Source of the DNA: a virus
Virus genome (UHGV): UHGV-1362522
Length of the DNA stretch: 46,906 nt
Strand: one strand, 5' to 3'
Shown: positions 4,844 to 41,664 of the stretch, one piece after another
Numbering within the stretch: position 1 is the first letter of the stretch
Layout: every line of letters begins with the position of its first letter
Position numbers and translations under genes: made by a program
Notes under the pieces: model-generated
Told to the model about the DNA's origin: nothing
What the model saw: only the letters and a program-made list of their open reading frames with translations
Database searches by the model: none

Positions 4844-5394
4844 TTTATCTCCCCACTCAGTTCATTAACAATTAATGTTGCATAGCCAGCAATGTCTTTC
4901 CAGCTATCGTCGTATGTCGGGTCGCCATTCAGGATGCGGCCAATTTTATGCTGAATCATGTCTAGCGCCTCCTTCTGGCTCGCCGTCAGGTTATTCCAGC
5001 CGTCAACGTCGCGCATGGTATCCTTCAGTGATTGCATGATATCTGCACCGTCTTTGAACTTCCCGTAGCGAGTGCCGCGCTCGGTGATGAGGGCTTCTGT
5101 TTCATCACTGCCGCCAATGTTGGCATCATGCCACTTGCCGTCCATTATCAATTCACCAGCTTTCACGCGGCATCCTGGTGAACTGGCGCATCCATTCAAA
5201 TCATCCTCGTCGGTGATTGGCTCACGATGAGCGACAACAATATCACCAGCCTTTTCGATATCCTTATCTCGTCCTGCATAATCCGCGCTGAGCCAGTAGA
5301 TTTTTCCACTGGTTGCCGACCTCACAACCAGGACGGCATCTTCATGGCCGTTAAAATAATCAGCGCTTCCCTTCAGATATTTGTATTTCATCAC
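4840..5394 (-). CDS. hypothetical protein; C-terminal half resembles MazG/DUF550-like nucleotide pyrophosphohydrolase domains (tentative)
   Basis: C-terminal ERGTRYGKFKDGADIMQSLKD...SQKEALDMIQHKIGRILNGD...DSWKDIAGYATLI resembles phage dATP/dGTP pyrophosphohydrolase N-terminal domains. From memory only. Confidence 0.35.
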   Translation of the reverse strand: MMKYKYLKGSADYFNGHEDAVLVVRSATSGKIYWLSADYAGRDKDIEKAGDIVVAHREPITDEDDLNGCASSPGCRVKAGELIMDGKWHDANIGGSDETEALITERGTRYGKFKDGADIMQSLKDTMRDVDGWNNLTASQKEALDMIQHKIGRILNGDPTYDDSWKDIAGYATLIVNELSGEIK

Positions 5395-5591
5395 TCACCT
5401 CTCAACGTAACTTTGTTTTTCTCATCCACGCTGAAGTGTTCGCGCACAAACGCATACATTTCTTCAGCACTCCATTCACGCATTGCTACATAGCAGTGCG
5501 CGTAATATCTGACATCTCGCAGGCTTAACGGCTGGCGCTTAGCGATAATCTCAGTCAGTACTTCCAGTGGTTCTTTGCGTTGTCTCGCCAT
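5391..5591 (-). CDS. hypothetical protein (66 aa), first gene of the leftward operon
   Basis: SD AGGAGA 7 nt upstream. ATGA overlap with the next gene. Confidence 0.4.
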   Translation of the reverse strand: MARQRKEPLEVLTEIIAKRQPLSLRDVRYYAHCYVAMREWSAEEMYAFVREHFSVDEKNKVTLRGE

Positions 5592-9725: not shown

Positions 9726-10799
9726 ATGGAAAAGATTATTTTTACCAAAGACTTGGTAGCCAACTCCGCAGTGGTGGCTGACCAGTGGAAACATCTCACC
9801 ATCGACCGTAAAGTGTTCTGCAATGCAGAAGCTGAACTGGCGAAAACCTACGGTGTTAACGCCACCGCACTGGTAACGAAAGATTACTGGCGCGACGTGG
9901 ATAACGTCACCACCCGCGTTTTCCGCAACGAAGCTGGTCAGGATATGATGGCTGACCTGATGGGTATCGCGGCAAACATCAACATCGGTAAGACCGTGGC
10001 AATTAGTCGCATTGCTTCCGATGCTGGTAAGGTCGTCCGCACCCTGTCTGGTCAGGAACCGGAAGATTTGGATAAAACTCGCTACGATTACACTGGCGAT
10101 GTGATTCCAATCTTTAAGACTGGATACAGCCGCGAATGGCGCGAACTGCTGGGTATGCAATCTGAAGGTTTTGACCCGCTGCTGGATGACCAGGCTAACG
10201 TCACCTTCAACCTGCGTTCCGACATGGCGCAGTACCTGCTGACCGGCGACCAGACTCTGAACGTGAACGGCGTGTACACTGGTTACGGTATCACCAACCA
10301 CCCGAACACCATTCAGGTTAACCTGAGCACCGATTCCCCCGGCCTGGATATCGACCTGCAAACCGCAACGCCAGATAAAATCGTGACCTTCTTCAATCAG
10401 GATTTCCAGGCTATTCTGGATGCGCAGAACGTATTTGAGCAGGTGACTCTGTGGGTTTCCCCGGCAGTGCGCCGCAGCTTCATGCGTCCGTATTCTGATG
10501 CGGCCGGTTTCAAAGGCGGCACTGTTGAGCAGTACATCACGCAGTTCGGCAATGGTCGCATCGGCAAGATTGGCACCAACTTCCTGCTGACTGGCAACCA
10601 TTTCGTTGGTTACGTTCGCAACGACATGTACATCCGTCCGCGTGTTGCTCAACCTGTTTCCACCTACGCAGCAGCCCGTACCAACCCGCACGATAACTTT
10701 AACTTCCTCGTGTGGTCAGCTTTTGGCCTGCAAATCCGTAAGGATTTCAATGGTCGAAGCAAAGTTTTCAACGGCTACGGCACGCAAACCGCGCTGTAA
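9726..10799 (+). CDS. major capsid protein
   Basis: 357 aa. Followed by a strong terminator. Position after the protease-scaffold gene. Confidence 0.6.
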   Translation: MEKIIFTKDLVANSAVVADQWKHLTIDRKVFCNAEAELAKTYGVNATALVTKDYWRDVDNVTTRVFRNEAGQDMMADLMGIAANINIGKTVAISRIASDAGKVVRTLSGQEPEDLDKTRYDYTGDVIPIFKTGYSREWRELLGMQSEGFDPLLDDQANVTFNLRSDMAQYLLTGDQTLNVNGVYTGYGITNHPNTIQVNLSTDSPGLDIDLQTATPDKIVTFFNQDFQAILDAQNVFEQVTLWVSPAVRRSFMRPYSDAAGFKGGTVEQYITQFGNGRIGKIGTNFLLTGNHFVGYVRNDMYIRPRVAQPVSTYAAARTNPHDNFNFLVWSAFGLQIRKDFNGRSKVFNGYGTQTAL

Positions 10800-10841: not shown

Positions 10842-11036
10842 ATGGCTAAATACGAAGTTATCGCCAGCGGAATCTTTGTCAAGGATAAAGACGGTCGCCT
10901 GCGTGAGCTTGCTATTGGCGATATCATTGACGAATCAAGCCCGCACATTGAGTCAAAACTTCGCCCGGTTAGTGAGAAGATTCTGGAAGTGGCAACCCCA
11001 CAAGAATCACAGCCAAAGGCGAAGAAAACTAAATAG
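10842..11036 (+). CDS. hypothetical protein (64 aa)
   Basis: SD GAGG. Lies between two terminators. Confidence 0.4.
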   Translation: MAKYEVIASGIFVKDKDGRLRELAIGDIIDESSPHIESKLRPVSEKILEVATPQESQPKAKKTK

Positions 11037-11067
11037 AAAAGCCCCGCGAGGGGCTTTGGTTTATTTT
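11037..11067. terminator. bidirectional rho-independent terminator
   Basis: GCCCC-GCGA-GGGGC with T-runs on both sides. Ends the leftward 13.3->11.06 kb operon. Confidence 0.65.
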
Positions 11068-11201
11068 AGCGTGAACCAAACCTTATCTTCTTTTTCATGC
11101 AAGTGGTCGCGCTCTTTTGGTTCTGGAAAATCCTTTGGGGCTAACCCCATCTCGCAAGCAGTATCAAAAGAAACATCATCTTCGTCAATGCTGTCACTCA
11201 T
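11061..11201 (-). CDS. small acidic protein (46 aa)
   Basis: MSDSIDEDDVSFD... Its start lies just after the DnaN-like stop. Confidence 0.25.
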   Translation of the reverse strand: MSDSIDEDDVSFDTACEMGLAPKDFPEPKERDHLHEKEDKVWFTLK

Positions 11202-11203
11202 CA

Positions 11204-11740
11204 CTAAATCCTCATTGGCATAACGATAACTTTGGCAGTCTCGCCAGTAGGCGCACTGATGTTTGCGACGGCGGCGTTGATGTTGCCATTCAGGTCAAAG
11301 CGAACCGCCTCAAATTTCGGGTTAAACAGCTTTGCCAGCTTCTCTACATCTGCCAGATATTTGGCGTTGAAGCAGATTTGCTCTGTTGCCGCAGTCTGCT
11401 TTGGGATAACACGATCAATGTCAGGGAATCGGCCATTAATCTCAGAGCAGATACCTGCGCCTACCATGATTTCATGTTCGTCATGGTAGGTGACAATGTT
11501 TGTTTCAGTGTCCAGTAACGCATAGGAATAACGCTTAGTTGGCGACTTGCTTACTGACACGATAACGTTATCTTTCAATTTATTTTCATGCTTACTGGCA
11601 ATCATGGCGCGATGACCGTCAGTAGCGGCAACGCGACCATCAGGCATAAAGCAAATGCCATTCAGGTAATAGCGAACATCCTGTTTGGCCTGGAACATCA
11701 ACGCGCCTTCAAGAATTAACTTGCTGATTTTTAATTTCAT
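11204..11740 (-). CDS. truncated DnaN (beta sliding clamp) homolog, about half the length of DnaN
   Basis: KQDVRYYLNG, ATDGHR, INGRFPDIDRVIPK, ICFNAKYLADV and the C-terminal VIVMPMRI match the E. coli DnaN C-terminal region. Start MKLKIS with SD AGGTGA. Confidence 0.6.
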   Translation of the reverse strand: MKLKISKLILEGALMFQAKQDVRYYLNGICFMPDGRVAATDGHRAMIASKHENKLKDNVIVSVSKSPTKRYSYALLDTETNIVTYHDEHEIMVGAGICSEINGRFPDIDRVIPKQTAATEQICFNAKYLADVEKLAKLFNPKFEAVRFDLNGNINAAVANISAPTGETAKVIVMPMRI

Positions 11741-11913
11741 CACTTCACCTTTATCATGTGTTGTTTTGCAACCTTCAGGCATTCATCGAAAATCTTGCCC
11801 TTCTTTTCACTCTGGTTGCGCCTGTAGTGGGTAATTGCAGCCTCTATGGCCGCGTTGTCGATGCCTGGCAGTTTTTCGCGCAGGTTTTTCTCTATGAACT
11901 GTTCGTGGTTCAT
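11740..11913 (-). CDS. hypothetical protein (57 aa)
   Basis: SD GGAGAG. TAATG and ATGA coupling on both sides. Confidence 0.35.
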   Translation of the reverse strand: MNHEQFIEKNLREKLPGIDNAAIEAAITHYRRNQSEKKGKIFDECLKVAKQHMIKVK

Positions 11914-12110
11914 TACCAACTCTCCACCACATTTGCGCATTCATCATAAAATAAGAAATGCCTTGTTTTTTCTTCGTAACGCTTCATTTCAAATGCGATT
12001 ATGTCCTCCTGATAGTGAATTTTCTCCACCTGGCGAGCCACGCCGTCTCGCATTAGGATGTGATCGCCTTCTTTTATGTTTTTTGCAACAGTGCCAATTG
12101 TAATCATCAC
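11913..12110 (-). CDS. hypothetical protein (65 aa)
   Basis: SD GGAGAA. Coupled to the ParB-like gene stop. Confidence 0.35.
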   Translation of the reverse strand: MMITIGTVAKNIKEGDHILMRDGVARQVEKIHYQEDIIAFEMKRYEEKTRHFLFYDECANVVESW

Positions 12111-12922
12111 AGCTTCTCCAGAATCGCCAGCACTTCACTCAACTCAGCGGAAGGAAGACGCAAAAACTCCTCGGTCTCCTGTGCGACATGACCCTCAGCG
12201 ACAACCATATGATCTGCTTCTTTCAGCAACTGAATCAGGCGGTCAATCGGCTTAACTTTTTTGGCCTTGAGCGTTTTAGCCGTCACCTTATCCTTGCCCT
12301 GCGCTTTCGCTTCCTCAACGGCAGCATCAATAACGTTAACTGCATCATCTCCATGCTCGCGCGCCACTGCAACAGCGTTGGCATAGCTGATTTGGCCTGC
12401 GTTGATACGTTGCTTGATGGCATCAGGTACGTCACCAAGTGACAGGTGCATCTGCACATCAGAAACTGAGCGACCGACCTTCTTGGCGATTTCTTCATTC
12501 GTCCACCCGAACCCTTTCAGGCGCACATACGCCTTTGCACGCTCAAGCGGGTCGAGTTGCTTACCCTGACTGGATGACACCATGAAGGCGATTTTATCCG
12601 CTTCATCGCCGGTGAAGTCTTTGCACTCAATGCGCGCAATTGGTACGCCGCGCTCAATAGCTCGCAGCGCGCCAAGATAACGATGCTGGCCGTCAAGAAT
12701 CTTAATGCGCTTTCCGGCAGCATCAGGAATAACAGTTAACGCCGGGATTGGCTGTCCTGATTCCCAGCACTGCGCGAAGTATTCAACGTGCTGCTCATCG
12801 GCTTCGCGGATGTTGTACCCCGGCTCAAGATAAAGCTGGTCGACAGGAACCTGATAACCTTTGTTGACCACGATTCCGCCGCGAGTTTCTTTGTCTGAGT
12901 AAATTTTTCCGAGAGATGTCAT
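12107..12922 (-). CDS. ParB-like nuclease domain (ParB/Srx) protein
   Basis: KILDGQHRYLGALRAI matches the ParB N-terminal motif. C-terminal helical DNA-binding-like region. Confidence 0.55.
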   Translation of the reverse strand: MTSLGKIYSDKETRGGIVVNKGYQVPVDQLYLEPGYNIREADEQHVEYFAQCWESGQPIPALTVIPDAAGKRIKILDGQHRYLGALRAIERGVPIARIECKDFTGDEADKIAFMVSSSQGKQLDPLERAKAYVRLKGFGWTNEEIAKKVGRSVSDVQMHLSLGDVPDAIKQRINAGQISYANAVAVAREHGDDAVNVIDAAVEEAKAQGKDKVTAKTLKAKKVKPIDRLIQLLKEADHMVVAEGHVAQETEEFLRLPSAELSEVLAILEKL

Positions 12923-12929
12923 CTTTTCC

Positions 12930-13046
12930 TCACTTTGATAAACAGATTGCGCTGGCAATGGCGAATCCGATAACGATTAATGCCAGCTTTATTTTGAACT
13001 TATCCCACGCTTTCAGGTCTTCTTTGCGGATTTCGTGGCGGATCAT
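12930..13046 (-). CDS. 38-aa membrane peptide
   Basis: SD GGAGAA. ATGA-coupled. Sequence IKLALIVIGFAIASAICL. Confidence 0.25.
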   Translation of the reverse strand: MIRHEIRKEDLKAWDKFKIKLALIVIGFAIASAICLSK

Positions 13047-13342
13047 TGTGATTCTCCGATGGCTTTAGCAATTGCGGCATAAGCCTTGCTCAAAGCAGTG
13101 GCATTCCTTTTTGTTGGCGTAGTGAAGACTACAAGCATCTCCAGAGCCTCCAGCAATTCCGGCGCAGCGGCCATCATTCGTTGGTTGGCAACTTGAACCT
13201 CAACTTCAGGGTCAAACTCAACCCAGCCGACAGGAATAATCATTCCATAAGACTGGTCGTCCTCTGTTGATTTTGGCCCTATTGCCCTGCTGTTATCTCC
13301 AAACCACGGCCCCGGCGTACCTTTGAATTCATTCATCTTCAT
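13043..13342 (-). CDS. hypothetical protein, first gene of the leftward ParB operon
   Basis: SD GAGGTGA. Alternative starts at 13354 and 13336. Confidence 0.4.
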   Translation of the reverse strand: MKMNEFKGTPGPWFGDNSRAIGPKSTEDDQSYGMIIPVGWVEFDPEVEVQVANQRMMAAAPELLEALEMLVVFTTPTKRNATALSKAYAAIAKAIGESQ

Positions 13343-13364
13343 CACCTCTAACATTTATTGTTGT

Positions 13365-13425
13365 TTCTACGTCATCACTATAGCGACACCCTCAATCTAC
13401 GTCAACACTTTATGATAAAATTAAA
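13365..13425. promoter_or_regulatory. divergent promoters: leftward TTGACG-N17-TATAGT and rightward extended -10 TGATAAAAT, with two motif copies
   Basis: TTCTACGTCA at 13365-13374 and ATCTACGTCA at 13395-13404. Sequence nearly identical to the promoter at 37836. Confidence 0.45.
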
Positions 13426-17064: not shown

Positions 17065-17193
17065 TTAATCCTCCACCACTACGCCAATCTTAGCCAGCAA
17101 CAAAATCGCCTTTACGCGGGCCTCCTCATAGGTGTAACCCTGTTCGATGTAAAGGTCGATGTAAAATCTCAAATCAGCATCAGTCTCGTTCAT
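17065..17193 (-). CDS. small acidic protein (42 aa)
   Basis: SD GAGGG 6 nt upstream. First gene downstream of the leftward promoter at 17224-17253. Confidence 0.3.
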   Translation of the reverse strand: MNETDADLRFYIDLYIEQGYTYEEARVKAILLLAKIGVVVED

Positions 17194-17221
17194 ATGTCAA
17201 ACCCTCAATCACCTTATGCTT

Positions 17222-17265
17222 TCAATCTACGTCAGTCTTGCACTCCCTGTCAATGGTATAATTAC
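17222..17265. promoter_or_regulatory. divergent promoters: leftward TTGACA-N18-TAGATT, rightward extended -10 TGGTATAAT
   Basis: ATCTACGTCA at 17225-17234 (its complement supplies the leftward -10). A second partial motif ATTACGTCA is at 17261-17269. Confidence 0.4.
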
Positions 17266-17290
17266 GTCATTATGAAAACAGGATTTAGAC

Positions 17291-17998
17291 ATGAGACAAC
17301 GCACACCGCTAACAGAAATCGGAGAAATGCGCATCTCCCTGGATGACAAGTCTTTTTTCTTCAAACCATCATTTGCGGCGATGAATGAGCTTGGCTCACC
17401 AAAAGAGATTGTCGAGCTGTATGCTACGCTTAATGGCTATGAATACGCGGCTGTACTTGGCGCCATTCAGTCATTGCCATACGGCGCACAGATTCAGGTG
17501 GCAAAAATCCTGTCGCGTCCTGCCTATGGCAAGAAAGTGCTCAGCGCTGCCTGCCTCATCATGCAGTCCTGTTGCGATGATGATATCTCGGTGCTCATTG
17601 GATCATGGAAGCCGACTCCGCGCGGTGTTAAGTACGTCACCGGACGAATGCCAGTAAATGACATTATTATTATTGCTCGAAACCTGATGGAGCATGGCAT
17701 CATCGGAAAGTCTCCGCTCAAGGTTCCTCAGCGCTCGGAAAACCAAAAGCGCACAACCAGTGAGTTGAGAATGTCGGATTACATCATCTCAGCTCGCACC
17801 CATTTCGGAATCACCCGTGAGGAAGCAGAAGACCTGACCATGACCGAGTATCAGCAGATGATAAAATCAAAATACCCGGAACCGGAAGGTATGACGCGCG
17901 AGCAGTATGATGCGTCTTATGAACGGGCTAAGCTCAATAAACAGAAACTGAAAGAGAAAGCCGCCAGAAAGGCCGCTAAAAGCAAAGGAGCAAAATAA
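17291..17998 (+). CDS. tail assembly chaperone (gpG/GT-like)
   Basis: Position immediately upstream of the tape measure gene. TAATG coupling. Lys-rich C-terminus. Confidence 0.45.
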   Translation: MRQRTPLTEIGEMRISLDDKSFFFKPSFAAMNELGSPKEIVELYATLNGYEYAAVLGAIQSLPYGAQIQVAKILSRPAYGKKVLSAACLIMQSCCDDDISVLIGSWKPTPRGVKYVTGRMPVNDIIIIARNLMEHGIIGKSPLKVPQRSENQKRTTSELRMSDYIISARTHFGITREEAEDLTMTEYQQMIKSKYPEPEGMTREQYDASYERAKLNKQKLKEKAARKAAKSKGAK

Positions 17999-20900
17999 TG
18001 GCAGAAACAGTTGGCGGCATTATCTATGAGGTTGGCATTGACACATCCCAGCTAGTGGCTGGCAGTCGTGAATTGCAGTCAATGCTAAATGGACTTAGCG
18101 GGAACATGGGGCGACTTGAGGCCAGTGTAAACAGGACAGAGCGCTCTATTGGATCGATGGAACGAACAATGTCCAGCCTTTCTGGCGTTGCCAAGGGATT
18201 GTTCGCGGCGCTTTCTGTGCAACAGGTTGCGAGTTACGCCGATGCCTGGACTGAACTAAATAACAAGGTAGCTAACTCGGTTCGTACTGGAGAGACGCAG
18301 ACCGAAGTTATGCAGCGGATCTTTGATGTTTCACAAGCAACCCAGTCATCCCTTAACGGCACGGCGACTCTTTACGCCAGACTTGAGCGAGGAACCAGGG
18401 CGTACAACACCAGCGCGGAAGATTTAGTCCGCCTGACCACTATTATCAACCAGGGGTTTGCAGTATCCGGTGCAACAGCTCAGGAAGCTGAGAACGCAAT
18501 CATTCAGCTATCACAGGGTATCGCTTCCGGCGTTCTGCGCGGCGAGGAGTTTAACTCAGTGTCAGAGCAAGGCAGCCGCCTCATGGTAGCTCTGGCTGAT
18601 TCGATGGGTGTTTCTATCGGTCAGTTGAGGGCTATGGCCGCTCAGGGGCAGCTAACAACAGACGTTGTAGTTAAGGGGCTTCTGTCACAAGGGGATGCAA
18701 TCGGCAAAGAATTTGCCAACACCACCGTCTCAATCGCCAAGGGATTGCAGGTAGCCGGTAACAACGTAACGAAGTTCTTTGGCGAAAACTCGACGGTTAA
18801 ATCATTTGCAGCAGGGTTCCGAGACTCTGTCATCACAATAAGTGAGAACCTTGAGACGCTGAGCGGCGCCCTTATCATTGTAGCTGGCATAATGGGAAGT
18901 CGGTATGTTGGCGCGCTGGCAATGTCCACTGCCGCGAAAATATCAGATATAGCGGCATCAAGACAGCAATTAATAGCTGAGAATCAGCAGGCACAATCTG
19001 CACTCTTTGCCGCCAATGCCACCCAGAGAAAAGCTTTCGCTGATAAAGAGGCGGCACTATCATCTGTCGCACTTGCCCAGGCTGAATATAACGTAGCAAA
19101 AGGCAGTGCAGCCGAGGCGCTGGCTCTTGATGCTCTTATAGCTGCAAAGTCCAGAGCGAGCGCCGCGTCATTGTCTTTGGCGCAAGCTGAAAACGCACAG
19201 GCCGCGGCATCAGCGAGAGCGGCATCTGCGGCCAGAGCAGCTTCGGTAGGGGTTGGCCTTGCCAGAGGGGCGCTTTCATTGATAGGCGGCCCAGCAGGAG
19301 CGGCGACGTTAGCAGCGGGGGCAATTTTCTACTTCTGGCAAAAAGCGCAGCAGGCCAGAGAAGAATCCATTCGCTTTGCTGATAGCTTGGATCAAGTTAA
19401 CGAGTCAATGAAGGCGATGAATAACACCCAGCTAAGGGGGGTAATTGCCGACGCTAATAAGTCTATTCAGGCACAAGAGGAATATGTAAGGGATCTTGAA
19501 GACAGCATTGATAAACTTAAAGGTGAGATTGATGACTATACCGCAAGAGGAAAGCTGTTCGGAACAACAATAGAGCAAGGAAACGGGTTACTAAAAATCG
19601 CATCAGATAAAACTGATGAACTGAATCAAAAATCGCGCGACCTTGCGAACGCCAAGGAAAAACTAGCAAGAACTCAGGAAGCCGCATCTGAAGCACGCAG
19701 AACCCTTACAAACAACATGCTCACGTCTATGGGTGTGCATGACAGCCTGATTGAGAAAGGGTCGACTCTTGAGAGAGTGCAAGGAGCGGTGGCAAGAGCA
19801 TTTGGCCTGACTGCCGATGAGATAAACCGAGCGAATCAGGCCGGGCAAAACTTCAACCCAAAATCCTTGCAGGTGTCACCACCAACAGAAGAAGCTGATA
19901 AGATGATTCTCAGCCTTGAGGAGCAGAATCAGCTTTTAAAAATACAGGATGAAAGACAAAGGGCGGTAACAAAAGCACGGCTGGAGGCTCAAAAGGTAAC
20001 TGATAACCCCAATCAGATAGCAAGGGCTGCTGAACTTGCAGGGCAGATATATGATTTAAATGAGGCCGAGAAAGCAAGGGGTAAAGCGCAAAATGATGCG
20101 CAATCAGCGGCGCAAAAAGCAGCCACAGAGCAGGAGAATATCGCCAATAAACTTGAGGAACTCCGCCAGAAGTCATTGCTTACCGCTGAAAGCACAAGAG
20201 AGCTTAGCCGCGAACAGTCAATACTGGTTGCTCAGCAATCACTGGGCAAGGGAGCCACTCAGGAGCAAATTAACCTTGCCGGGCAATATGCGGCTAAGGC
20301 ATGGGATAATGCCAACGCGCTCAAGGCTCAGGCAGAGGCGGAGAAACAAAGGGTAGAAGCTGTCAAGGGATTCGCTGCATTAAAATCGCAGACATCCCCA
20401 ATGTTTGCCGTTGAAACAAATTATCAGAAGGATTTAGCAGCGCTCAATGCTTACGCGGTGGCTTACCCACAAAAGATAGCGGAGGTTGAACAGGCCAGAG
20501 CAGCTATTGAGGAGCAATACCGCCAGCAGCGCCTTGATGCCATGTGGCAGGAGTGGAGCCAGCAGAACGCTGCAACACAAGCGGCTGCTGCTGCATTTGA
20601 TGCTTTTGGGCAAACCGCAAGCAATGCCTTGACTGGTGTTTTGACCGGCTCAATGTCTGTTAGCGAGGCGCTACAGTCAATCGGCAGCACTGTGTTGAAC
20701 GCTGTGATTAACTCATTCGTTCAGATGGGTGTGGAGTGGCTTAAATCGGTGATTATGGGTCAGGTTGGGATGACCGCAGCCTCAGCGATGGCAGCGACTC
20801 AGGCTCAGATAATCGCAGCAGCTATGGCGCCAGCGGCAGCAATGACCTCGCTCGCTACAGCCGGGGCGAATGCAATCCCTGCACAGGCTGGAATTGTTTC

Positions 20901-28971: not shown

Positions 28972-29475
28972 TCAAAACGGAATATCATCACCAAAATCCA
29001 TCGGCGGATCGTTTACCGGTGGTTTTGATGTGTTTGATGGTTGCTGAGGTTTACCCCATCCTGATTGCTGATTGCTTCCTGATTGTTGTCGCTGCTGTGA
29101 TTGTTGGTTTCCATTATCACTTGATTTACCACCAATCATTTGCATAACGCCGTTCATCGGCTGCAAGACGATTTCAGTAGTGTATTTTTCAACACCGCTT
29201 TGATCTGTCCATTTTCGAGTGCGTAATTTACCCTCTATGTATACCTGAGAGCCTTTGCGCAGGTATTCGCCAGCCACCTCTGCCAGCTTTCCGAAGATAA
29301 CCACGCGATGCCATTCTGTCTGCTCTTTCTTTTCCCCTGTTGCTTTATCGCTCCACTGCTCTGATGTTGCCAGAGACAGATTGCACACAGCGCCGCCAGA
29401 TGGCATATATTTAACTTCCGGGTCTTGGCCTAGAGTGCCAAGAATAATTACTTTGTTGATTCCGCGAGATGCCAT
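28972..29475 (-). CDS. ssb: single-stranded DNA-binding protein
   Basis: OB-fold N-terminus, Gln/Gly-rich linker and the canonical C-terminal DDIPF tail. Confidence 0.85.
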
Positions 29476-29484
29476 AATTTACCC

Positions 29485-30531
29485 TTAAAAGTTTTCGATG
29501 TTCTGTTGAGATGTTGATGGCTTCTCTTCGTTTGAAGATGACGCGTGCGCATCTGCTTTCTGGAGTTTTGCCGGGTTGAAATCGTCCTGCGGCGTGATAG
29601 TTACAGCTGCTGGAGATTCATCATTAATGAATGATTCAATGCGCTCATACTCTTCTGCTGATGCCTTCAATGTAGGCCAGATTGCACGAATTTTTGCTTT
29701 CACTGAATCAGGCAAGTTAACTGCCTCGGCAGTTAACGCAGCAACGCCTTTCGACGCCGTCATTTGAAGTTTAGAGCGCCAGTGCTCAAACTCTTCGTCG
29801 ACCTTGACACCTGAATCCACCCATTTAATTAAACCTCTCCCATGAGCCTCGCCTAAGTATCCTTCGTGTACACTATCACGGCCTGAATCAAAGAAGATTG
29901 GACGCAACTCTTCTGGTAGCTTGGTAAATTCCTGAATTTTTCCATTATCATACATCATCATGCTTACTGTCATTTCAAACATAAAATCTTTTTCGCATAC
30001 AGCATGCAATCCGAGGGATTCAGGTTTCTTGGGGTTTTTAAAACTCGTTTTCTCTCTGGCTCGCAAACACACGATGATATGCATATTGCTCTGCAAAAGA
30101 GCGCTCATGAATTTTTTATGTTCAGACTTGGCTCGCTTCCAGTCTGCCATTGCCTTACCCTGCAATAGTGGTTGCTCTGCAATATCATTGCATCCTCCTT
30201 CACCTTCCCATTCGTGCGATCCTGAATCAATAACCAGAACCTTAACGCCTGCCTCCTGAAATTCCTCGATAGCCTGGCGGTAACGAGCTGGACTAAATGG
30301 CGCATACAAATCAGCGTGCATAAATGGACCGTCAAGCTCTCCAGAATAAAGCCTGCCACGACCATTTTCAGAGTCAAGAAATCCAATTTCTTCTGGTTTA
30401 TCGACCATACCTCGCGCCATCTTTAGTGCCGTAAGCGTCTTGCCGCTACCAGACTGACCTGAAATGCCAATCACTATGCGAGAACCTGAACGCTCTGCTG
30501 GTTTAATATTAAGAATACCCATTTGCATCAC
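29485..30531 (-). CDS. RecA-fold ATPase (Sak4-like recombination protein)
   Basis: Walker A GISGQSGSGKT, Walker B KVLVIDSG, acidic C-terminus. Lies next to ssb and an exonuclease gene. Confidence 0.5.
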   Translation of the reverse strand: MMQMGILNIKPAERSGSRIVIGISGQSGSGKTLTALKMARGMVDKPEEIGFLDSENGRGRLYSGELDGPFMHADLYAPFSPARYRQAIEEFQEAGVKVLVIDSGSHEWEGEGGCNDIAEQPLLQGKAMADWKRAKSEHKKFMSALLQSNMHIIVCLRAREKTSFKNPKKPESLGLHAVCEKDFMFEMTVSMMMYDNGKIQEFTKLPEELRPIFFDSGRDSVHEGYLGEAHGRGLIKWVDSGVKVDEEFEHWRSKLQMTASKGVAALTAEAVNLPDSVKAKIRAIWPTLKASAEEYERIESFINDESPAAVTITPQDDFNPAKLQKADAHASSSNEEKPSTSQQNIENF

Positions 30532-30539
30532 CTCACTAG

Positions 30540-31496
30540 TTATAAATTAAATTGTTTTTTGAACCATTCCGGCGTTTCCATTTCGATGACCGGATTACCC
30601 ATTGAGTAGCCAGGCCATGAATTGGCTTTTTTGCATGCCTTATAGATTTCCATCGCGCTGCGCAGCTGAATGCGACCAATGCGTAACTGTTCATCAGTCA
30701 GACGAATCAACGCAGGGATGAATGGAGATTTCTTCTCCTGCACCAGAAGATTTACCGAGCGAGGTGCATGCCCATAAGCCTCGACAAACATGTCGTGCTG
30801 CATCGCCATCTTCATAAAGTACCCGAGACGCGCTGCATGGCGGAAAAACTCATCAGGCTTTGCGCTGACCGCTGTTTTGTAGTCGATGATATCGCCACCG
30901 CGAGTAAGGCAGTCAAAGCGTACTTTTGATGGCTCGCCAAGCAACTGACCGAGAATTGACACCTCGGAATAAGCACCAGAAAGCAGGCTGCTGTAATAGC
31001 TGTTTGCATGGATTACGGCGCGCATCTGCATGATGGCGTCATAATCATTGCCTTCCAGCATTGTTTTACCAGTAGCAGCCTTCTCTGCTTCTTCACGGAT
31101 AACATCGTAAATCTGCACTGTCTCGCCAGTGGCCTGAATAATTTTAATCACTTCGGCTTTAGTCTTACCTGAAAGCCCTTTAATTCCGCGCTCTTTCGCC
31201 CATGAGTTCATGTCGGAAGCTGTCAACAGCACCGTGCGATTGCCATCTTTGTCTTTTGGAAAATCTTCGACAACTGGCATGCGGGCATATTCTGCTTCGA
31301 AGCGCTCAGGCTCAAGCAGTGCGGTATGGCTACCGGTGCCGAAGACAAGAGCCTTTGATTGCTCATCTTCTTCGTCTTTGTAGCGCCACGCTGCCGGGCA
31401 GCGGTCATAGATGTTCCACAGGCCAGAGCCGTTGATGTGCTCTGTGTCAGCATGATATTGGTCATTACTGAGTTCGTTGTTTAAATAAACTTTCAT
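30540..31496 (-). CDS. PD-(D/E)XK family exonuclease (RecE/lambda-Exo-like recombination exonuclease)
   Basis: GDIIDYKT provides a D..D-x-K motif. Position in the recombination module. Confidence 0.5.
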   Translation of the reverse strand: MKVYLNNELSNDQYHADTEHINGSGLWNIYDRCPAAWRYKDEEDEQSKALVFGTGSHTALLEPERFEAEYARMPVVEDFPKDKDGNRTVLLTASDMNSWAKERGIKGLSGKTKAEVIKIIQATGETVQIYDVIREEAEKAATGKTMLEGNDYDAIMQMRAVIHANSYYSSLLSGAYSEVSILGQLLGEPSKVRFDCLTRGGDIIDYKTAVSAKPDEFFRHAARLGYFMKMAMQHDMFVEAYGHAPRSVNLLVQEKKSPFIPALIRLTDEQLRIGRIQLRSAMEIYKACKKANSWPGYSMGNPVIEMETPEWFKKQFNL

Positions 31497-31540: not shown

Positions 31541-31957
31541 TCATTCATCAAGCCCAAAATAGAATAACGTCGCTCTTTTTATCTCCTCAAGACCATAAGC
31601 AATGGCTCCAAAGTGACCCTCTGCAATGGCGCACTCAAGAACATCAATCTGCGATGGCGATACTTTTGATTTTGTCTTATCACGCCTCTTCAGCTCAATC
31701 AGGCCGCATTTATGATTAATGCCGTGAGTTAGTATCACGTTGTCGCTTACACCGCTCCTGACGCCCATCTTTCGGCGTTTCTCGACGAATTGAGGGCCGC
31801 TCTTTGTTCCAGTCTCGTTAGGCACATGAAACCACAGGACTTCAGGGAATCGGTATTGCATCCAAAGACCATAGGCCATCTGGTCAGTCTCTTCTTTAGG
31901 GCATTCTCCACGATAACCGCTATCAAATACCCATATTCCACCATCAAGCTGCTTCAA
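31541..31957 (-). CDS. VRR-NUC domain nuclease
   Basis: GVSDNVILTHG....IELKRRDK...QIDVL fits the VRR-NUC PD-(D/E)XK signature. Confidence 0.55.
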   Translation of the reverse strand: MKQLDGGIWVFDSGYRGECPKEETDQMAYGLWMQYRFPEVLWFHVPNETGTKSGPQFVEKRRKMGVRSGVSDNVILTHGINHKCGLIELKRRDKTKSKVSPSQIDVLECAIAEGHFGAIAYGLEEIKRATLFYFGLDE

Positions 31958-33878
31958 TTTGTTCTCCTATGAAATCCTTGCGGTGGATTATATCGCGGCC
32001 TTTATCGTTAAAACGATGCGTGATGCGCTTAGGCGCTCTGATTAACCCGGCGTAATGCATGAAAGTCTTCGCATCATGGCAGTCCATCATTTTCTTCATC
32101 ATTGATTTATCTTCCAGGTGCGGAAGCAGAGCCTTCATTTTAAACATGTCGCGCAGGTGCTTTGGTTTGCCTCCGAACGGATAAAACACCTCATTTGCCC
32201 AGCCGGTCTTGCCATCAGCTTTTACCACCAGGTAGCGATAAAGAACCCCCTCAGCGTCTTTAGTCAACTCGACTTTAAAATCTTGCACATCTGTCCATTC
32301 TTTATCCGTGTAGGCTCGCTCATTAAGCGCCGCATTAGGGTCGCGCAAAACGTGATCGCATTGACGGCAATAACGAGCTGTCGGGTCGTTTTTTGTGCCG
32401 CAACCATCATCAAAAATGCGGATGCCGTGCTTGTCGAAACCACAGCGGATGAAGCTGAAAAACTCTTCGCAACGACCATCTGGCGATGTTGCATCCTTAC
32501 CGATGCAGCGCCGTGCATATGGGCTGTTCATCGTCTGGCATTTAGGGCATGGAACTTGCTCTCCGCTGCGCTTGGCGCGCTGTGCTTCTGCTTCCTCAAG
32601 AATAGGGTCTTCGTACAGACCGCCAAGCTCAAACATGGTTCCGGTGAAGTCAAGGCAAAGATGGTTTTCTTTCACCAGACCTGCGGCAATCTGGTCTGGC
32701 TTCAATAATCGCATTGGTCGGCCAAGTAACTGCGTCAGAAGAGTCAGGGACATGATTTTTCTCAGGATGACAGACGTGTCCCAATATGGGATGTTGACGC
32801 CAGTCGTCAGGCAACCGATTTGCAGCGTGTATTTTTTGCGCCCGGTTGCCGCATCTTTCAGAGCTTTCCGTCTGGCTTTCTGCCCCATATCCTCGGTAAC
32901 AATGGAATAACTGCCTTCTGGTAAATATTTTGCAGCCTCCTTGCAATGTTTTTTACCTGCGCAGGTAATGAGTACACCAAGTCTGTCGCGCGTAAGCTCC
33001 ATGACTTTGAGCATTATTTTTTGCGTCAATGTACCCTGCTTGAGGATTTCTTCCTGCATCTCTTTTAGCTGGCTATCAGTGAAGTCCTGCACTCCGTCAA
33101 CGTCACTACTGGCAAACTCATGCAGATCGTATTGCAAGTCCTCGATATCCTGCCCGCCAAAGATGGTAGGGACAAGAAACCCAAGATCGACAAGGTATTT
33201 AGTGCTGATGTTGACGATTTCATGTTTCCAGTAAGCCCCTTTTATCGACTCAACGCCGCGAAATGGGCTGCCGGTGTAGCCAATGACAATCACCTCATGC
33301 CCGTACTTGGATTTGCAGCGCCGGTTAAGTTCATTCATGATGACACCGTACTGCGTCTCTGGCTGATCTGATATTATGTCCTGCCAGTTAACCTGGTGAC
33401 ATTCATCGACAAGGATGTAGCGAGGGGTAAAGTCCGAAAGCAAAGATTTTGTCACTGTGCCATCGTCTGCCGTCTTATCAAAAAGACCATTTATTATTGT
33501 GCCCTCTGTTCCCGCGATAAGCGGATAGGCATAAGCCTTACGCCCAAGTGAAGCGCTAAACAAAGAGTTTTTTACGCTCAGGTTCCAAAGCTCCTCAGCA
33601 TCCTGCTCAATAATTTCGCCTTGTCTTGCGATGACAAGCCCCTCCCACCCCATATCCTGAAACCGACGGGCAATCATGGCGATCATAATTGTCTTACCAG
33701 CACCAACTGATGCTGTCACAAAACTTGGTTTAGGTTCTCTACCAAACTTGCGGATAACCTCCGCTGTCTTTTCATACACTAGCCACTGATATGGGCGAGG
33801 TTCAATTTCCCCGGTATGGATGCTGGCACGCAGCTTATCCATATCCAGCTCAGCAATCATTGCATCAATTTTTTGCAT
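31944..33878 (-). CDS. SF2 DEAD/DEAH-box DNA helicase with C-terminal zinc ribbons
   Basis: ASVGAGKT (motif I), LVDECHQV (motif II), then CPKCQ..C and CRQC zinc-ribbon motifs. Confidence 0.7.
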   Translation of the reverse strand: MQKIDAMIAELDMDKLRASIHTGEIEPRPYQWLVYEKTAEVIRKFGREPKPSFVTASVGAGKTIMIAMIARRFQDMGWEGLVIARQGEIIEQDAEELWNLSVKNSLFSASLGRKAYAYPLIAGTEGTIINGLFDKTADDGTVTKSLLSDFTPRYILVDECHQVNWQDIISDQPETQYGVIMNELNRRCKSKYGHEVIVIGYTGSPFRGVESIKGAYWKHEIVNISTKYLVDLGFLVPTIFGGQDIEDLQYDLHEFASSDVDGVQDFTDSQLKEMQEEILKQGTLTQKIMLKVMELTRDRLGVLITCAGKKHCKEAAKYLPEGSYSIVTEDMGQKARRKALKDAATGRKKYTLQIGCLTTGVNIPYWDTSVILRKIMSLTLLTQLLGRPMRLLKPDQIAAGLVKENHLCLDFTGTMFELGGLYEDPILEEAEAQRAKRSGEQVPCPKCQTMNSPYARRCIGKDATSPDGRCEEFFSFIRCGFDKHGIRIFDDGCGTKNDPTARYCRQCDHVLRDPNAALNERAYTDKEWTDVQDFKVELTKDAEGVLYRYLVVKADGKTGWANEVFYPFGGKPKHLRDMFKMKALLPHLEDKSMMKKMMDCHDAKTFMHYAGLIRAPKRITHRFNDKGRDIIHRKDFIGEQIEAA

Positions 33879-33892
33879 TTTGAATCACCCAA

Positions 33893-34414
33893 TTATTTCA
33901 ATCGACCAAAATCTTTGTGGTATTTTTTAGATGCTATTGCATACGCCATTGCGGCTGCTTCTTTTGTGGCATGCCTTCCAAGCCATATTTTTTTATTATT
34001 AACCCATATCCAGCAAGTCCATCTACCTGTCTGCTTGCAAAAACCGACACCTTTCACTCCTGATGTGTTGTGTTTTGGGGTTCTCATGTTTCTAACATTT
34101 TCGTTAAAGTTTGCCTCTCTAAGGTTTTCTATTTTGTTGTTTAAAGGATTCCCATCGATATGGTCTATTATTAACTCAGGCCAATAACCATGCACTAACG
34201 CCCATATTATTCTATGAACCTTTATATCAAAGCCTAAAAAACCAACCTGAAGATATCCACTTACAGTCTTTGAGCCTGCAATAGCACCACGTTTAACCCT
34301 GTTTGTTGTTGTTCTTTTCCATATGAGATTTATTCCGTCATATGAAAAATACTCACGCAGCGTGGATACTGGTATTGACCTCTCTTTTGACTTCATCAAT
34401 TCGAAATCATTCAC
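33893..34414 (-). CDS. HNH homing endonuclease with AP2 domain, between helicase and primase genes
   Basis: HRIIWALVHGYWP..IDHIDGNPLNNKIENLREANFNEN then SGVKGVGFCK..GRWTCWI (AP2). Confidence 0.7.
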   Translation of the reverse strand: MNDFELMKSKERSIPVSTLREYFSYDGINLIWKRTTTNRVKRGAIAGSKTVSGYLQVGFLGFDIKVHRIIWALVHGYWPELIIDHIDGNPLNNKIENLREANFNENVRNMRTPKHNTSGVKGVGFCKQTGRWTCWIWVNNKKIWLGRHATKEAAAMAYAIASKKYHKDFGRLK

Positions 34415-34476: not shown

Positions 34477-35367
34477 ATGTTTTATTGGGAAGATATACGA
34501 CAAAGGATGATTGGCAACTGGGAGGCCGCGCTGCTATCAATAGTGAATATTGACAGGAAGGTTTTTAATGGAAAGCATCAGCCATGCCCTCATTGCATGG
34601 GTAAGGACAGGTTTAGGTGGGATAACAACTTCGAAACAAAAGGTGACGGCGGCGCCATCTGCAACCAGTGCGGAAACGGCAGCGGAATCACCTGGCTAAT
34701 GAAGCTGTCAGGAATGACGTTTCCAGAGTCAATGGAGGCACTGGCCGGATTTCTGAACATGCACCCACGCGAAAAACTTGAGGCGATTAGAAAGCAGTTG
34801 CCAAAAGTCAATGGTGCATCGGACTGCCTTGCTCCAGAAGAAGTGGCGGCCATCATGGAAAAAGCAGGCGGCGACACTATAACCGGTAAAACTGGTGAAC
34901 TGGTGGCGATACCACTCTATATGGCTGGAACCATGTCGCCGTGCAACGTGGCTTTTCTGGCAGACGATGAAACCGTGTCATTTCGCGCGGGTTTTAGCCA
35001 TGAATACACTCGTGGAAGACTTACGCGCGGCGCAGTGACACCGATTGGTGAAAAAACAGAGTGGACATACCTGGTTGCGGATTACCTCGATGCCTGGCGA
35101 GCACACCGGCTTACCGGTGCTCATGTCTGGTGTTGCTGGTCGCCGGAAAATATGTGGGAAGTTGTGCGCAATGTGAGCGATGAACAGCGAGCTAAACTTC
35201 GCTGCATCATTAATAATAATTTCGACGAGGTATGCGCCGCCGAGAATGCTGGCCTGCCGATACTGATTACTGATGATGGTAATGATATCCGTTACAGCGG
35301 CGCCATCAGAAAAAGGCTGTATAAACCAGAAGAGCTATTTGAAGCACTAAAAAACAAACCCTCCTGA
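34477..35367 (+). CDS. DNA primase (zinc-ribbon + TOPRIM-like)
   Basis: CPHCMGKDRF...CNQCG primase zinc ribbon. Acidic D-x-D region downstream. SD GGAG. Confidence 0.55.
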   Translation: MFYWEDIRQRMIGNWEAALLSIVNIDRKVFNGKHQPCPHCMGKDRFRWDNNFETKGDGGAICNQCGNGSGITWLMKLSGMTFPESMEALAGFLNMHPREKLEAIRKQLPKVNGASDCLAPEEVAAIMEKAGGDTITGKTGELVAIPLYMAGTMSPCNVAFLADDETVSFRAGFSHEYTRGRLTRGAVTPIGEKTEWTYLVADYLDAWRAHRLTGAHVWCCWSPENMWEVVRNVSDEQRAKLRCIINNNFDEVCAAENAGLPILITDDGNDIRYSGAIRKRLYKPEELFEALKNKPS

Positions 35368-35380
35368 TGGAGGGTTTTTG

Positions 35381-35614
35381 TTATTCTATGCTAATTAAAA
35401 CGTAACCAGGAAGATATAAGCTTACATCAGCTATATGCACAATTAATTTATCAACCCTCTCACCTGTGTAATCACCATCCCATTCATAAAGAGCAAGAAT
35501 GTCTCCAACCTTAAAATTACGGTCGTTATTCCTTAGTTCAGCCCTCTTTAAACCATCAACAACAGGCCAAAAGTGTTGAGGTAATATTTTAAGTTCATGT
35601 ACTTTGCTCATCAT
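35381..35614 (-). CDS. DUF3850 (ASCH/PUA-like) protein
   Basis: HELKILPQHF...ELRNNDRNFKVGDILALYEWD matches the DUF3850 signature. Confidence 0.5.
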   Translation of the reverse strand: MMSKVHELKILPQHFWPVVDGLKRAELRNNDRNFKVGDILALYEWDGDYTGERVDKLIVHIADVSLYLPGYVLISIE

Positions 35615-37164
35615 TTCAGTCTCGGGTTCAGGTAAACAGTGTTATTAAGGAATACGCAATATCCATCTTCTTCAAGAGACGGCAAAACGTTTGACTTGAG
35701 TCTGTCATAAATGTGAGGTATACCTTTGAATGGTCTAACGTTTTTTAGTGAATCATACAGCCATTTCACAGTTACATTTGTCTTTCCTTTTTGCGCAGCT
35801 GTGCGCAATTTTTCAGCAACAACATCAATTTCTGATTTCTCGCCAGCGTATCCATTTGACTCAACGGCGTCAGTAAATGTTTTTGTTAGTGCATCATAAA
35901 CGCTTATGGCGCGGCTTATATGCTCCTCACCAATAATTTTTGATCGACGACCGCCATCGCACCAGTTTTCAGCTGCATGGAATATTGCCGAAAGCCTGAT
36001 TATCTGTTTGTCAGCCTTACCCATGGCGCCACGAAGCAAAACGTGATCCCATTTACCACCTGGCAGGAAATTCTTTTCCCACTGGTTTCGCAAAAGTCCA
36101 ATCATACGCTGCGATTCTTTAGCGAGGGAGAAAACAACCTTCTCAGAAGCCACAAGGTTATGCACAAATCTGGCATATTCCGCCTTTAGTTCTTTAGGCA
36201 TTGGCTTACTTACCGGGCAATCATTTTCCACATCCCAATGCTCACGATAACCCAGCATTGACTGCTCACGAAGCATCAGGAATCGCTCTGACAATCCGTT
36301 ACCCCTGTCGCCAGCCGACAGAATGGCATCAATACTTTCATCCTGTGCAATGACGCTGATGTTACCAAGCACATAGCCAGATGAAACGCCACGACCAACG
36401 CGAGCTGAGCCAACAAACCCTCCATCCCAGCCTTTCAGGATGACCTCGGCGTTAGATTTCCCTCCATCCTTGCCATACGAAAGGCCAAGACAGGTATTTA
36501 AAACGCTTGCCTCATCACTTATCAGGTTGAAAAAACCACCCTCATGAATTGCCTGGTGCTGCACCGCTTCTGGCGTTGCATCAGTTAACGGGTATGTGAT
36601 GGTGTAAAGACTTTCCAGTTTTTCCTTCTCTTTTGCAATGTCATCTCCAATGATGGCCTTCGCGTTCTGATTCGTCGCTTCCTTGTAGGCCTTCATCAGG
36701 TCTTCAATGCGAATGTTTATCTTTACAATTTCCTTCTCCATCTTTTTTGACAGGTTGTCATACTCAATTTTTATCGGGTTCATGTGCATTGAGTTGATGG
36801 CTGTCTTGCCAGCTGATGGCGGCTGCGACGTCACCACATACAAGGAAACAGGCAATTCAGAACCGTAGTATTCAACGCTAAAATTTCGTGTCATGGCACT
36901 TGCTACGCAGCCAAGAAGATGCATGAATGACGTGCTAACTGGGAATTGCACAGCCCTCGCTGCTGCAACTGAGTAGCGCGTTATCAGGTCTTTCCTGTTG
37001 TCGCTGGTAAGCTCTATCTCCGAGTATGTTACATCCTTCTCCTGCCCTTCCTTAATTTCCGGCCACATGTTATGGCTTGGTGTCATGCCATGATGAATGG
37101 CGACGCGAGCCGCAGAAGTGTGCGCTTCTCTTGCCTGGTTGAAGATTTCCTGTGCTGTAATCAT
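35611..37164 (-). CDS. DUF3987-family P-loop NTPase (putative replicative helicase / primase partner)
   Basis: TSQPPSAGKT (Walker A-like), LISDEA (Walker B). 517 aa. Lies next to the origin-like region. Confidence 0.45.
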   Translation of the reverse strand: MITAQEIFNQAREAHTSAARVAIHHGMTPSHNMWPEIKEGQEKDVTYSEIELTSDNRKDLITRYSVAAARAVQFPVSTSFMHLLGCVASAMTRNFSVEYYGSELPVSLYVVTSQPPSAGKTAINSMHMNPIKIEYDNLSKKMEKEIVKINIRIEDLMKAYKEATNQNAKAIIGDDIAKEKEKLESLYTITYPLTDATPEAVQHQAIHEGGFFNLISDEASVLNTCLGLSYGKDGGKSNAEVILKGWDGGFVGSARVGRGVSSGYVLGNISVIAQDESIDAILSAGDRGNGLSERFLMLREQSMLGYREHWDVENDCPVSKPMPKELKAEYARFVHNLVASEKVVFSLAKESQRMIGLLRNQWEKNFLPGGKWDHVLLRGAMGKADKQIIRLSAIFHAAENWCDGGRRSKIIGEEHISRAISVYDALTKTFTDAVESNGYAGEKSEIDVVAEKLRTAAQKGKTNVTVKWLYDSLKNVRPFKGIPHIYDRLKSNVLPSLEEDGYCVFLNNTVYLNPRLK

Positions 37165-41629: not shown

Positions 41630-41664
41630 TTCACTTCAATGATGCCCTGATGAGGAATCTATAT

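Follow-up and report, generated by a model that had tools for sequence, protein, structure and literature searches.

A truncated phage homologue of DnaN retains the pocket residues of the beta sliding clamp and lacks the parts that close the ring

The binding pocket of the bacterial beta sliding clamp, DnaN, is the hub at which proteins of replication, repair and recombination, over a dozen of them, gain access to DNA, and it is a target of antibiotics, the griselimycins. Phages intervene at the interface between the clamp and its clients with proteins such as Gp168 of Twort and ORF240 of G1, both Staphylococcus phages, and MuC of phage Mu, all of which are ligands or blockers of the host clamp. 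A shortened clamp is also produced by the host itself: E. coli beta*, a UV-inducible product of an internal start in dnaN, begins near residue 135 and comprises domains II and III. Here we analyse a gene in a 46,906-nt stretch of the virus genome UHGV-1362522 (hereafter the window, meaning the whole stretch), namely an intact open reading frame (ORF) of 178 codons at positions 11204..11740 of the minus strand, with a TAG stop at 11204-11206, which encodes a truncated homologue of DnaN that we call the mini-clamp. Unlike the phage proteins above, the mini-clamp is itself a homologue of the clamp and would act at the same interface from the receptor side. Its N terminus lies at about the same domain I/II boundary as that of beta*, and both proteins retain the pocket; they differ in that beta* has a complete domain III, whereas half of this domain is missing from the mini-clamp.

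The existence of the gene and its homology to DnaN are already known. The mini-clamp is 100% identical to one database entry and one IMG/VR contig, and the entry bears the name 'DNA polymerase III, beta subunit'. Labels of this kind have been in use since the GenBank record of Bcep43, in which gp15 is a 'DNA Pol III b subunit fragment', and include 'putative beta-clamp protein' in Serratia phage Eta, 'putative DNA polymerase III beta sliding clamp' in Klebsiella phage RSU-F4K5 and 'putative DNA polymerase III beta subunit; possible moron' for gp7 of SO-1. A homologue has also served as a phylogenetic 'signature protein', under the name of a 'DNA polymerase III beta subunit' marker, in a genome paper (PMC9901506). 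We found no functional study of the family in the literature, most subscription journals being outside the coverage of the search. What is new here is the argument that the protein is a pocket-only derivative of the clamp.

By sequence and by fold, the mini-clamp is a true homologue of DnaN. Five signature blocks of enterobacterial DnaN, which an earlier note on this DNA had listed in order, are all present and in register: QDVRYYLNG (mini-clamp residues 20-28) is identical to E. coli DnaN 149-157 at 9 of 9 positions and ATDGHR (residues 39-44) to 171-176 at 6 of 6, while NGRFPDIDRVIPK pairs with DGRFPDYRRVLPK (E. coli DnaN 238-250), ICFNAKYLADV with IGFNVSYVLDV (317-327) and VIVMPMRI with YVVMPMRL (359-366). 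The comparison set beforehand as a check, BLASTP against E. coli DnaN (P0A988; from MG1655), returned a significant alignment (32% identity, 177 columns, E = 1e-12) rather than a match to one short motif. Among PDB chains, phmmer gave E = 3.2e-13 for Enterobacter DnaN and 9.2e-12 for E. coli DnaN, and across all chains it retrieved beta sliding clamps only, down to E of about 0.3. A family profile built from an alignment of 83 diverged members, which are 27-50% identical to the query and biased toward its relatives, scored 92.6 bits against E. coli DnaN (E = 1.3e-30) and reached E = 2e-25 against the PDB clamps. Against the models for canonical DnaN, the protein scores far too low: it obtains 40.2 bits with the equivalog TIGR00663, whose cut-off is 137.65, the Pfam domains PF02767 (20.2 bits) and PF02768 (14.8 bits) both fall short of their gathering score, 27, and there is no match to PF00712.

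The alignment resolves the protein into domain II, the connector between domains II and III (GRFPDxxRVxPK) and the second half of domain III, the three parts over which it is homologous to DnaN. Residues 1-101 (11438..11740, minus strand) correspond to domain II, beginning at the domain I/II boundary at about E. coli residue 128, as indicated by a score of 54.9 bits for the N-terminal 115 residues against DnaN domain II (123-244), by the secondary structure of the AlphaFold2 model and by the mapping of pocket residues. The connector, GRFPDIDRVIPK, occupies residues 103-114 (11399..11434, minus strand; E. coli 239-250 by alignment and pocket mapping). Residues 115-178 (11207..11398, minus strand) make up the second beta-alpha-beta-beta-beta half of domain III (E. 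coli ~313-366), and here the assignment follows from a score of 30.8 bits for the C-terminal 63 residues against DnaN 305-366 and just 7.6 bits against DnaN 245-312. Domain I and DnaN residues ~251-312 are thus missing, as the earlier note had proposed, the length is 178 aa against 366 aa, and the spacing from P242 to M362 is 68 residues against 120 in DnaN. A normal three-domain clamp protomer, which that note had considered beyond the reach of this protein, is indeed precluded by the absence of these segments.

The losses fall on the parts that close the ring. The missing stretch of domain III includes I272/L273 and I305; I272A/L273A is a monomerising mutation of the beta clamp (PMC11139829), and PDB 3PWE, one of the structures matched, is an R103C-I305C crosslink. 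With domain I and the I272/L273/I305 region gone, neither side of the canonical head-to-tail interface is present, and for this reason a poison that forms heterodimers with host DnaN through that interface, one of the roles that had been suggested for the protein, is unlikely. The other suggestions, a clamp mimic or decoy or a module interacting with polymerase or clamp loader, fare better, as they fit the very strong conservation of the predicted pocket described below. An AlphaFold2 model based on the 83-sequence alignment shows a compact monomer with a clamp-like fold (mean pLDDT 96.9, pTM 0.91). Where E. coli DnaN has the second channel-lining helix of its domain II (197-208), the model has a loop of nine residues in its place, SKSPTKRYS (residues 64-72); most relatives have a similar G-K-x-I-P-x-K loop, and a minority retains a helix-like segment.

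These observations bear directly on the possibility that the mini-clamp still works as a sliding clamp, through a closed or C-shaped oligomer formed either with itself via new interfaces or with host beta in a mixed ring. The arithmetic would permit it, given that a ring has 12 beta-alpha-beta-beta-beta units, as many as four protomers of 1.5 domains would provide. The protein has kept the clamp fold, and with domain I and the first half of domain III gone, the edges that they normally cover would be exposed. Skaliter, Paz-Elizur and Livneh are also said to have reported, in J Biol Chem in 1996, E. coli beta* as a clamp in a different oligomeric state. Yet both halves of the canonical interface are deleted, one of the three expected channel-lining helices has been lost in the mini-clamp and most of its relatives, and the model is confidently that of a compact monomer, so that we regard an oligomeric clamp as improbable.

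What has been retained, at the level of sequence, is the hydrophobic pocket that in the clamp lies between domains II and III and receives clamp-binding motifs. We mapped onto the 83-member alignment the 18 pocket residues defined in a 2024 review (PMC11139829), which assigns R152, L155, T172, G174, H175, R176, L177, P242, R246, V247, V360 and M362 to subsite I and H175, N320, Y323, V344, M362, P363, M364 and R365 to subsite II. At the 18 pocket positions, the members agree with the E. coli residue with a mean identity of 0.72, compared with 0.22 at the other 133 aligned positions, a contrast not equalled in any of 100,000 permutations (p < 1e-5). When the columns of the family are ranked by conservation, pocket positions take the first six places (P242, 100%; G174, 99%; M362 and R152, 96%; P363 and H175, 95%) and 10 of the first 13. 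In the query itself, 14 of the 18 residues are identical to those of E. coli, among them R152, L155, T172, G174, H175, P242, N320, Y323, M362, P363 and R365; L177A, V344I and V360I are conservative or hydrophobic replacements, and R176 is the same in the query and variable across the family. Among bacteria, the pocket is least conserved at G174 and V344 (PMC11139829), and V344 varies in the mini-clamp family too. In mini-clamp numbering, the domain II part contributes R23, L26, T40, G42, H43, R44 and A45, the connector P106 (invariant in 83 of 83 members), R110 and V111, and the C-terminal part N125, Y128, I154, I172, M174, P175, M176 and R177, the protein ending, as DnaN does, in MPMR followed by a leucine or isoleucine (MPMRI in the mini-clamp). 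The half of domain III that was kept is exactly the half that supplies N320, Y323, V360 and M362-R365, and the mini-clamp accordingly looks like a minimal unit holding what would be the whole pocket.

The same architecture recurs throughout a large family. The mini-clamp matches phrog_3007 from end to end (E = 6e-59, residues 1-178 against positions 1-186 of the 190-position profile), and a HMMER search of 1.84 billion representatives of 50%-identity clusters yielded 2124 matches at E <= 1e-3, of which 157 remained at E <= 1e-10. The best 150 matches are, with few exceptions, 170-215 aa long, the first full-length DnaNs appearing at E of about 1e-11. Among the 92 short members carrying all three anchor motifs, the FPD proline and the MPxR methionine are separated by 61-96 residues in 92 of 92 (median 68; DnaN, 120), the histidine of TDGH lies at position 41-63 in every case, which implies that none of them has a domain I, and 76 of the 92 end, like DnaN, 1-3 residues past MPxR. 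The short members of PHROG 3007, as far as their sequences go, share one derived architecture with the same deletion of ~52-60 residues in domain III. In length class, deletion, conserved motifs and kinds of genomic neighbourhood, the family matches the mini-clamp, differing in nothing essential, although its labels conflict. Homologues were found by tblastn in 281 phage records at 94% down to 25% identity, with hosts in Klebsiella, Salmonella, Escherichia, Shigella, Serratia, Sodalis, Proteus, Vibrio, Shewanella, Edwardsiella and Burkholderia; proteins of named Klebsiella phages and of a bat-derived siphovirus are 83-94% identical to the query. In IMG/VR, 281 stretches carry a homologue, including prophages of isolate genomes, and BFVD holds many viral models of 178-210 aa with TM-scores of 0.8-0.9 to the mini-clamp. 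We found no domain fusions among the family matches that would hint at function; a match of 1004 aa proved to be a WD40 false positive, and the longer matches are merely less-truncated DnaN.

It had been proposed that close similarity to enterobacterial DnaN reflects recent capture from the host. This is not supported, because identity to E. coli DnaN is 32%, far below the value expected of a gene recently taken from Klebsiella or E. coli as the host, and because the same truncation is shared by a deeply diverged family, with members 27-50% identical to the query and the deletion in 92 of 92. For the same reasons, it is very improbable that the gene is a recently captured, decaying piece of host dnaN devoid of a function of its own. 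The best-scoring solved relatives are enterobacterial clamps, as that explanation would have it. But the architecture recurs in the 157 clusters and 281 phage records mentioned above and across many host genera, the frame is intact behind a good ribosome-binding site, and the ratio of nonsynonymous to synonymous substitution rates (dN/dS) has a median of 0.10 and a maximum of 0.24 (104 pairs from 15 close relatives), which means that the gene is kept by strong purifying selection. The whole-family profile scores highest on enterobacterial clamps and next on other gammaproteobacterial ones, so that an ancient proteobacterial origin is plausible, the alignment being biased toward relatives of the query. 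As to the suggestion that T1-like genomes have no equivalent, T1 itself indeed lacks a homologue (best score 3.3 bits), but one is present in the 281 phage records, many of which already annotate it as a beta subunit or clamp.

One of the conflicting family labels calls for separate comment. PHROG 3007 is named 'RusA-like Holliday junction resolvase', and the name is repeated in RefSeq (NC_071151, NC_071150, NC_048112, NC_005342 and others). A resolvase function has only the phrog_3007 label and the annotations derived from it on its side. A Pfam scan at E <= 10 finds no RusA match to the mini-clamp and returns the DnaN central and C-terminal domains only, and those who submitted the same genes to GenBank named them beta subunit or beta-clamp. 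Since every significant sequence and fold match is a clamp-fold protein, the label is a misannotation, contradicted by every comparison of sequence and fold, and the probability that the protein is a resolvase is next to nil.

How might a clamp pocket without a ring serve a phage? Our preferred, though tentative, answer is that the mini-clamp is a ring-incompetent, stand-alone pocket that most likely acts as a soluble decoy, titrating proteins that carry a clamp-binding motif (CBM). It would bind proteins with QLxLF-type motifs while not being topologically bound to DNA. The ligands would be host clamp clients, that is, the clamp-loader delta subunit, polymerases II, IV and V, Hda, MutS and MutL, RecB, and the alpha and epsilon subunits of Pol III. 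In competition with the host clamp, clients with a single motif would be soaked up and kept off both host clamps and phage DNA; the multivalently anchored replicase would be less affected. The latter point matters for the window phage, in which no DNA polymerase gene was found among the annotated genes and which must therefore rely on host Pol III.

That host clients are the likely ligands follows from the lack of a convincing CBM in phage proteins. None of the 86 ORFs of the window has a strict QLxLF or QLxLxF motif, and there are only loose internal matches, including QMHLSL in the helix-turn-helix of the ParB-like protein; strict motifs are likewise missing from the polymerase, helicases and primase of SO-1, and a scan of 963 neighbouring ORFs in 87 loci of the family gave counts near chance. 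A QADLF in the gene directly upstream of the mini-clamp in 11 of 31 prophages was rejected as a chance match: it is part of a folded Bro-N/Rha-type motif (…GQADLFRLILRS…), and homologues do not conserve it. There are precedents for phages acting on the supply of clamps or on the pocket. The lambda small RNA PreS raises the level of DnaN (bioRxiv 10.1101/2024.10.31.621285); MuC of Mu recruits the beta clamp to late transcription and, when overexpressed, brings about over-initiation in the host (PMC12867686); and QVEMEF of RecB is a functional CBM that binds the canonical clamp pocket (PMC13254535; 2026). A wider formulation, in which the mini-clamp is a receptor-side mimic whose soluble pocket captures host CBM proteins (RecB of RecBCD, the SOS-induced polymerases IV, II and V, Hda, MutS/L or free delta) and so rewires or disarms the clamp interactome, is possible too and is put forward with reserve.

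Several considerations weigh against the decoy. A strong general competitor for the pocket would also hit the alpha-beta and delta-beta contacts that phages without a polymerase need. The pocket residues are the most conserved ones in DnaN itself, and the contrast with the remaining positions could in part reflect structural constraint or detection bias. Finally, the basic isoelectric point (pI) of the family, together with neighbours encoding primase, helicase, ParB and methyltransferase, fits a DNA-bound role at least equally well.

The last point leads to the main rival of the decoy, a non-encircling tether or adaptor, in which a basic surface would sit on phage DNA, or on the phage replisome or a ParB-type protein, while the pocket holds a CBM-bearing enzyme. 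That enzyme could be the host Pol III core, a ligase, a repair enzyme or a methyltransferase partner, and the protein would then resemble UL42 or a tau-like coupler of Pol III and helicase for which no clamp loader is needed. The conserved pocket is as expected for a tether. So is the charge: the mini-clamp has a pI of 8.7 and the family is mostly basic (median 8.5, above 7 in 64 of 83), unlike E. coli DnaN (5.25; 6.1 for the equivalent segment), a shift that could reflect DNA binding or attraction of acidic flanks of the motif. The loop that replaces the channel helix is rich in lysine and arginine, both in SKSPTKRYS and in the family consensus. In a survey of the 87 loci, dereplicated at 60% identity to 25 clusters, primase (5 of 25) and superfamily 2 helicase (4 of 25) recur next to the gene, as do ParB-like proteins, DNA methyltransferases and a Band-7 protein, and in the window the mini-clamp shares its operon with a ParB-like gene.

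On the other side, the host loader puts beta on any primed template, so that phages using Pol III normally need no adaptor; the family also occurs in SO-1, which has its own polymerase (gp38), one without a CBM; and many genomes carry the gene as a solitary insert on the reverse strand, a long way from the genes for replication. The herpesvirus processivity factors UL42 (a monomer) and the C-clamps UL44, BMRF1 and PF-8 have two complete domains each and a basic face documented to bind DNA, show no sequence relationship to the mini-clamp and serve the virus's own polymerase, whose C-terminus UL42 and UL44 bind in a cleft. On balance, we consider a tether less likely than a soluble decoy, to which it is the principal alternative.

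The placement of the gene across the family is that of an accessory early gene and not of a core replisome subunit. It stands on the opposite strand within or beside capsid/tail blocks in SO-1 (4992-5510), Bcep43 (4998-5579), Proteus phage PM-CJR (5028-5489) and the window, as a lone gene in SO-1 and Bcep43 and as part of a small leftward unit in PM-CJR and the window, which suggests repeated moron-like acquisition at similar places in unrelated phage groups. In a large prophage cluster, the mini-clamp is always preceded by a mosaic Bro-N/Rha/antirepressor-like gene and always followed by a 74-aa ORF; at a distance of 3-6 genes, a protein with a ParE-like toxin domain lies upstream and an integrase downstream. 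Two candidate associations were rejected. A fixed gene partner does not exist at the level of neighbour families, none of which occurs in more than 5 of the 25 dereplicated clusters, and the family is not tied to phages lacking a polymerase, because SO-1 encodes one whereas the window phage and Skarpretter do not.

In the window, as the earlier note had stated, the 178-aa protein belongs to a leftward operon containing a ParB-like gene, where it is the fifth of six co-directional ORFs. The operon opens with a 103-aa ORF (13043..13354, minus strand; phrog_1273, no assigned function) and continues with a ParB/KorB-like DNA-binding protein (12107..12958, minus strand; phrog_1033; Pfam HTH_ParB and KorB), a 65-aa ORF (11913..12110, minus strand; no family match) and a 66-aa ORF (11740..11940, minus strand; phrog_4439, no assigned function), whose stop overlaps the ATG of the mini-clamp. 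The last ORF, acidic and 47 aa long (11061..11204, minus strand; no family match), has a start that overlaps the mini-clamp stop. Most gene callers place the start of the mini-clamp 14 codons further upstream, at the ATG at 11782, and so predict 192 aa. The start that yields 178 aa is the better fit, because the N-termini of diverged homologues line up with it and an AAGGTG Shine-Dalgarno sequence lies 5 nt upstream. A sigma-70-like sequence upstream of the operon, TTGACG-17-TATAGT (13377..13405, minus strand), matches the promoter consensus at 10 of 12 positions, and the assignment is by consensus match only.

The leftward unit sits between the major capsid gene (9726-10799, plus strand) and downstream rightward head and tail genes, its end converging on a gene at 10842-11036 (plus strand) on the capsid side. 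Between this gene and the 47-aa ORF (11061-11204, minus strand) lies a GC-rich hairpin (11038..11057) with an 8-bp stem and T-runs on both strands, likely a bidirectional terminator that splits the capsid transcript from the leftward ParB/mini-clamp operon. Models of defence systems in PADLOC-DB match neither the mini-clamp nor the ParB-like neighbour. In Klebsiella phage RSU-F4K5, an opposite-strand gene annotated 'transposase/putative RNA-guided endonuclease' (TnpB-like; 17071-18186) lies among the head-tail joining genes; no ORF matching it in size is found in the corresponding region of the window.

The window phage is ~90% identical in nucleotide sequence to the Klebsiella siphoviruses ZC2, ZCKP8, DP01 and BUCT541; its relatives are unclassified Caudoviricetes, and it has T1-like replication and recombination genes. 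It encodes a single-stranded DNA-binding protein (28972-29475), an AAA_24/Sak4-like protein (29485-30531), a RecE-like exonuclease (30540-31496), two helicases (31944-33878 and 35611-37164) and a primase (34477-35367). Between helicase and primase lies an HNH endonuclease gene (33893-34414, minus strand; phrog_99), likely a homing-type insertion in the replication module. The TerL ORF (41650-44184, plus strand) encodes 844 aa compared with 480 aa in the close relative ZC2, and Pfam places a Hint domain (residues 92-178) and a LAGLIDADG homing endonuclease (309-375) ahead of Terminase_3 (454-648); the TerL of this phage thus carries an intein.

Reading PHROG 3007 as a family of clamp derivatives would correct the 'RusA-like Holliday junction resolvase' misannotation in RefSeq phage genomes. 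That the pocket was kept and the ring parts discarded across so widespread a family implies selection for binding of pocket ligands off the ring. The identity of the ligand would reveal which host clamp client matters most to phages, be it a repair polymerase, RecBCD, Hda or the loader, and the mini-clamp could serve as a compact, 20-kDa monomeric pocket scaffold for inhibitor screening. If the receptor-side mimic is borne out, the effectors of host takeover or anti-defence would gain a new class, one that is widespread among proteobacterial phages and probably extends to others.

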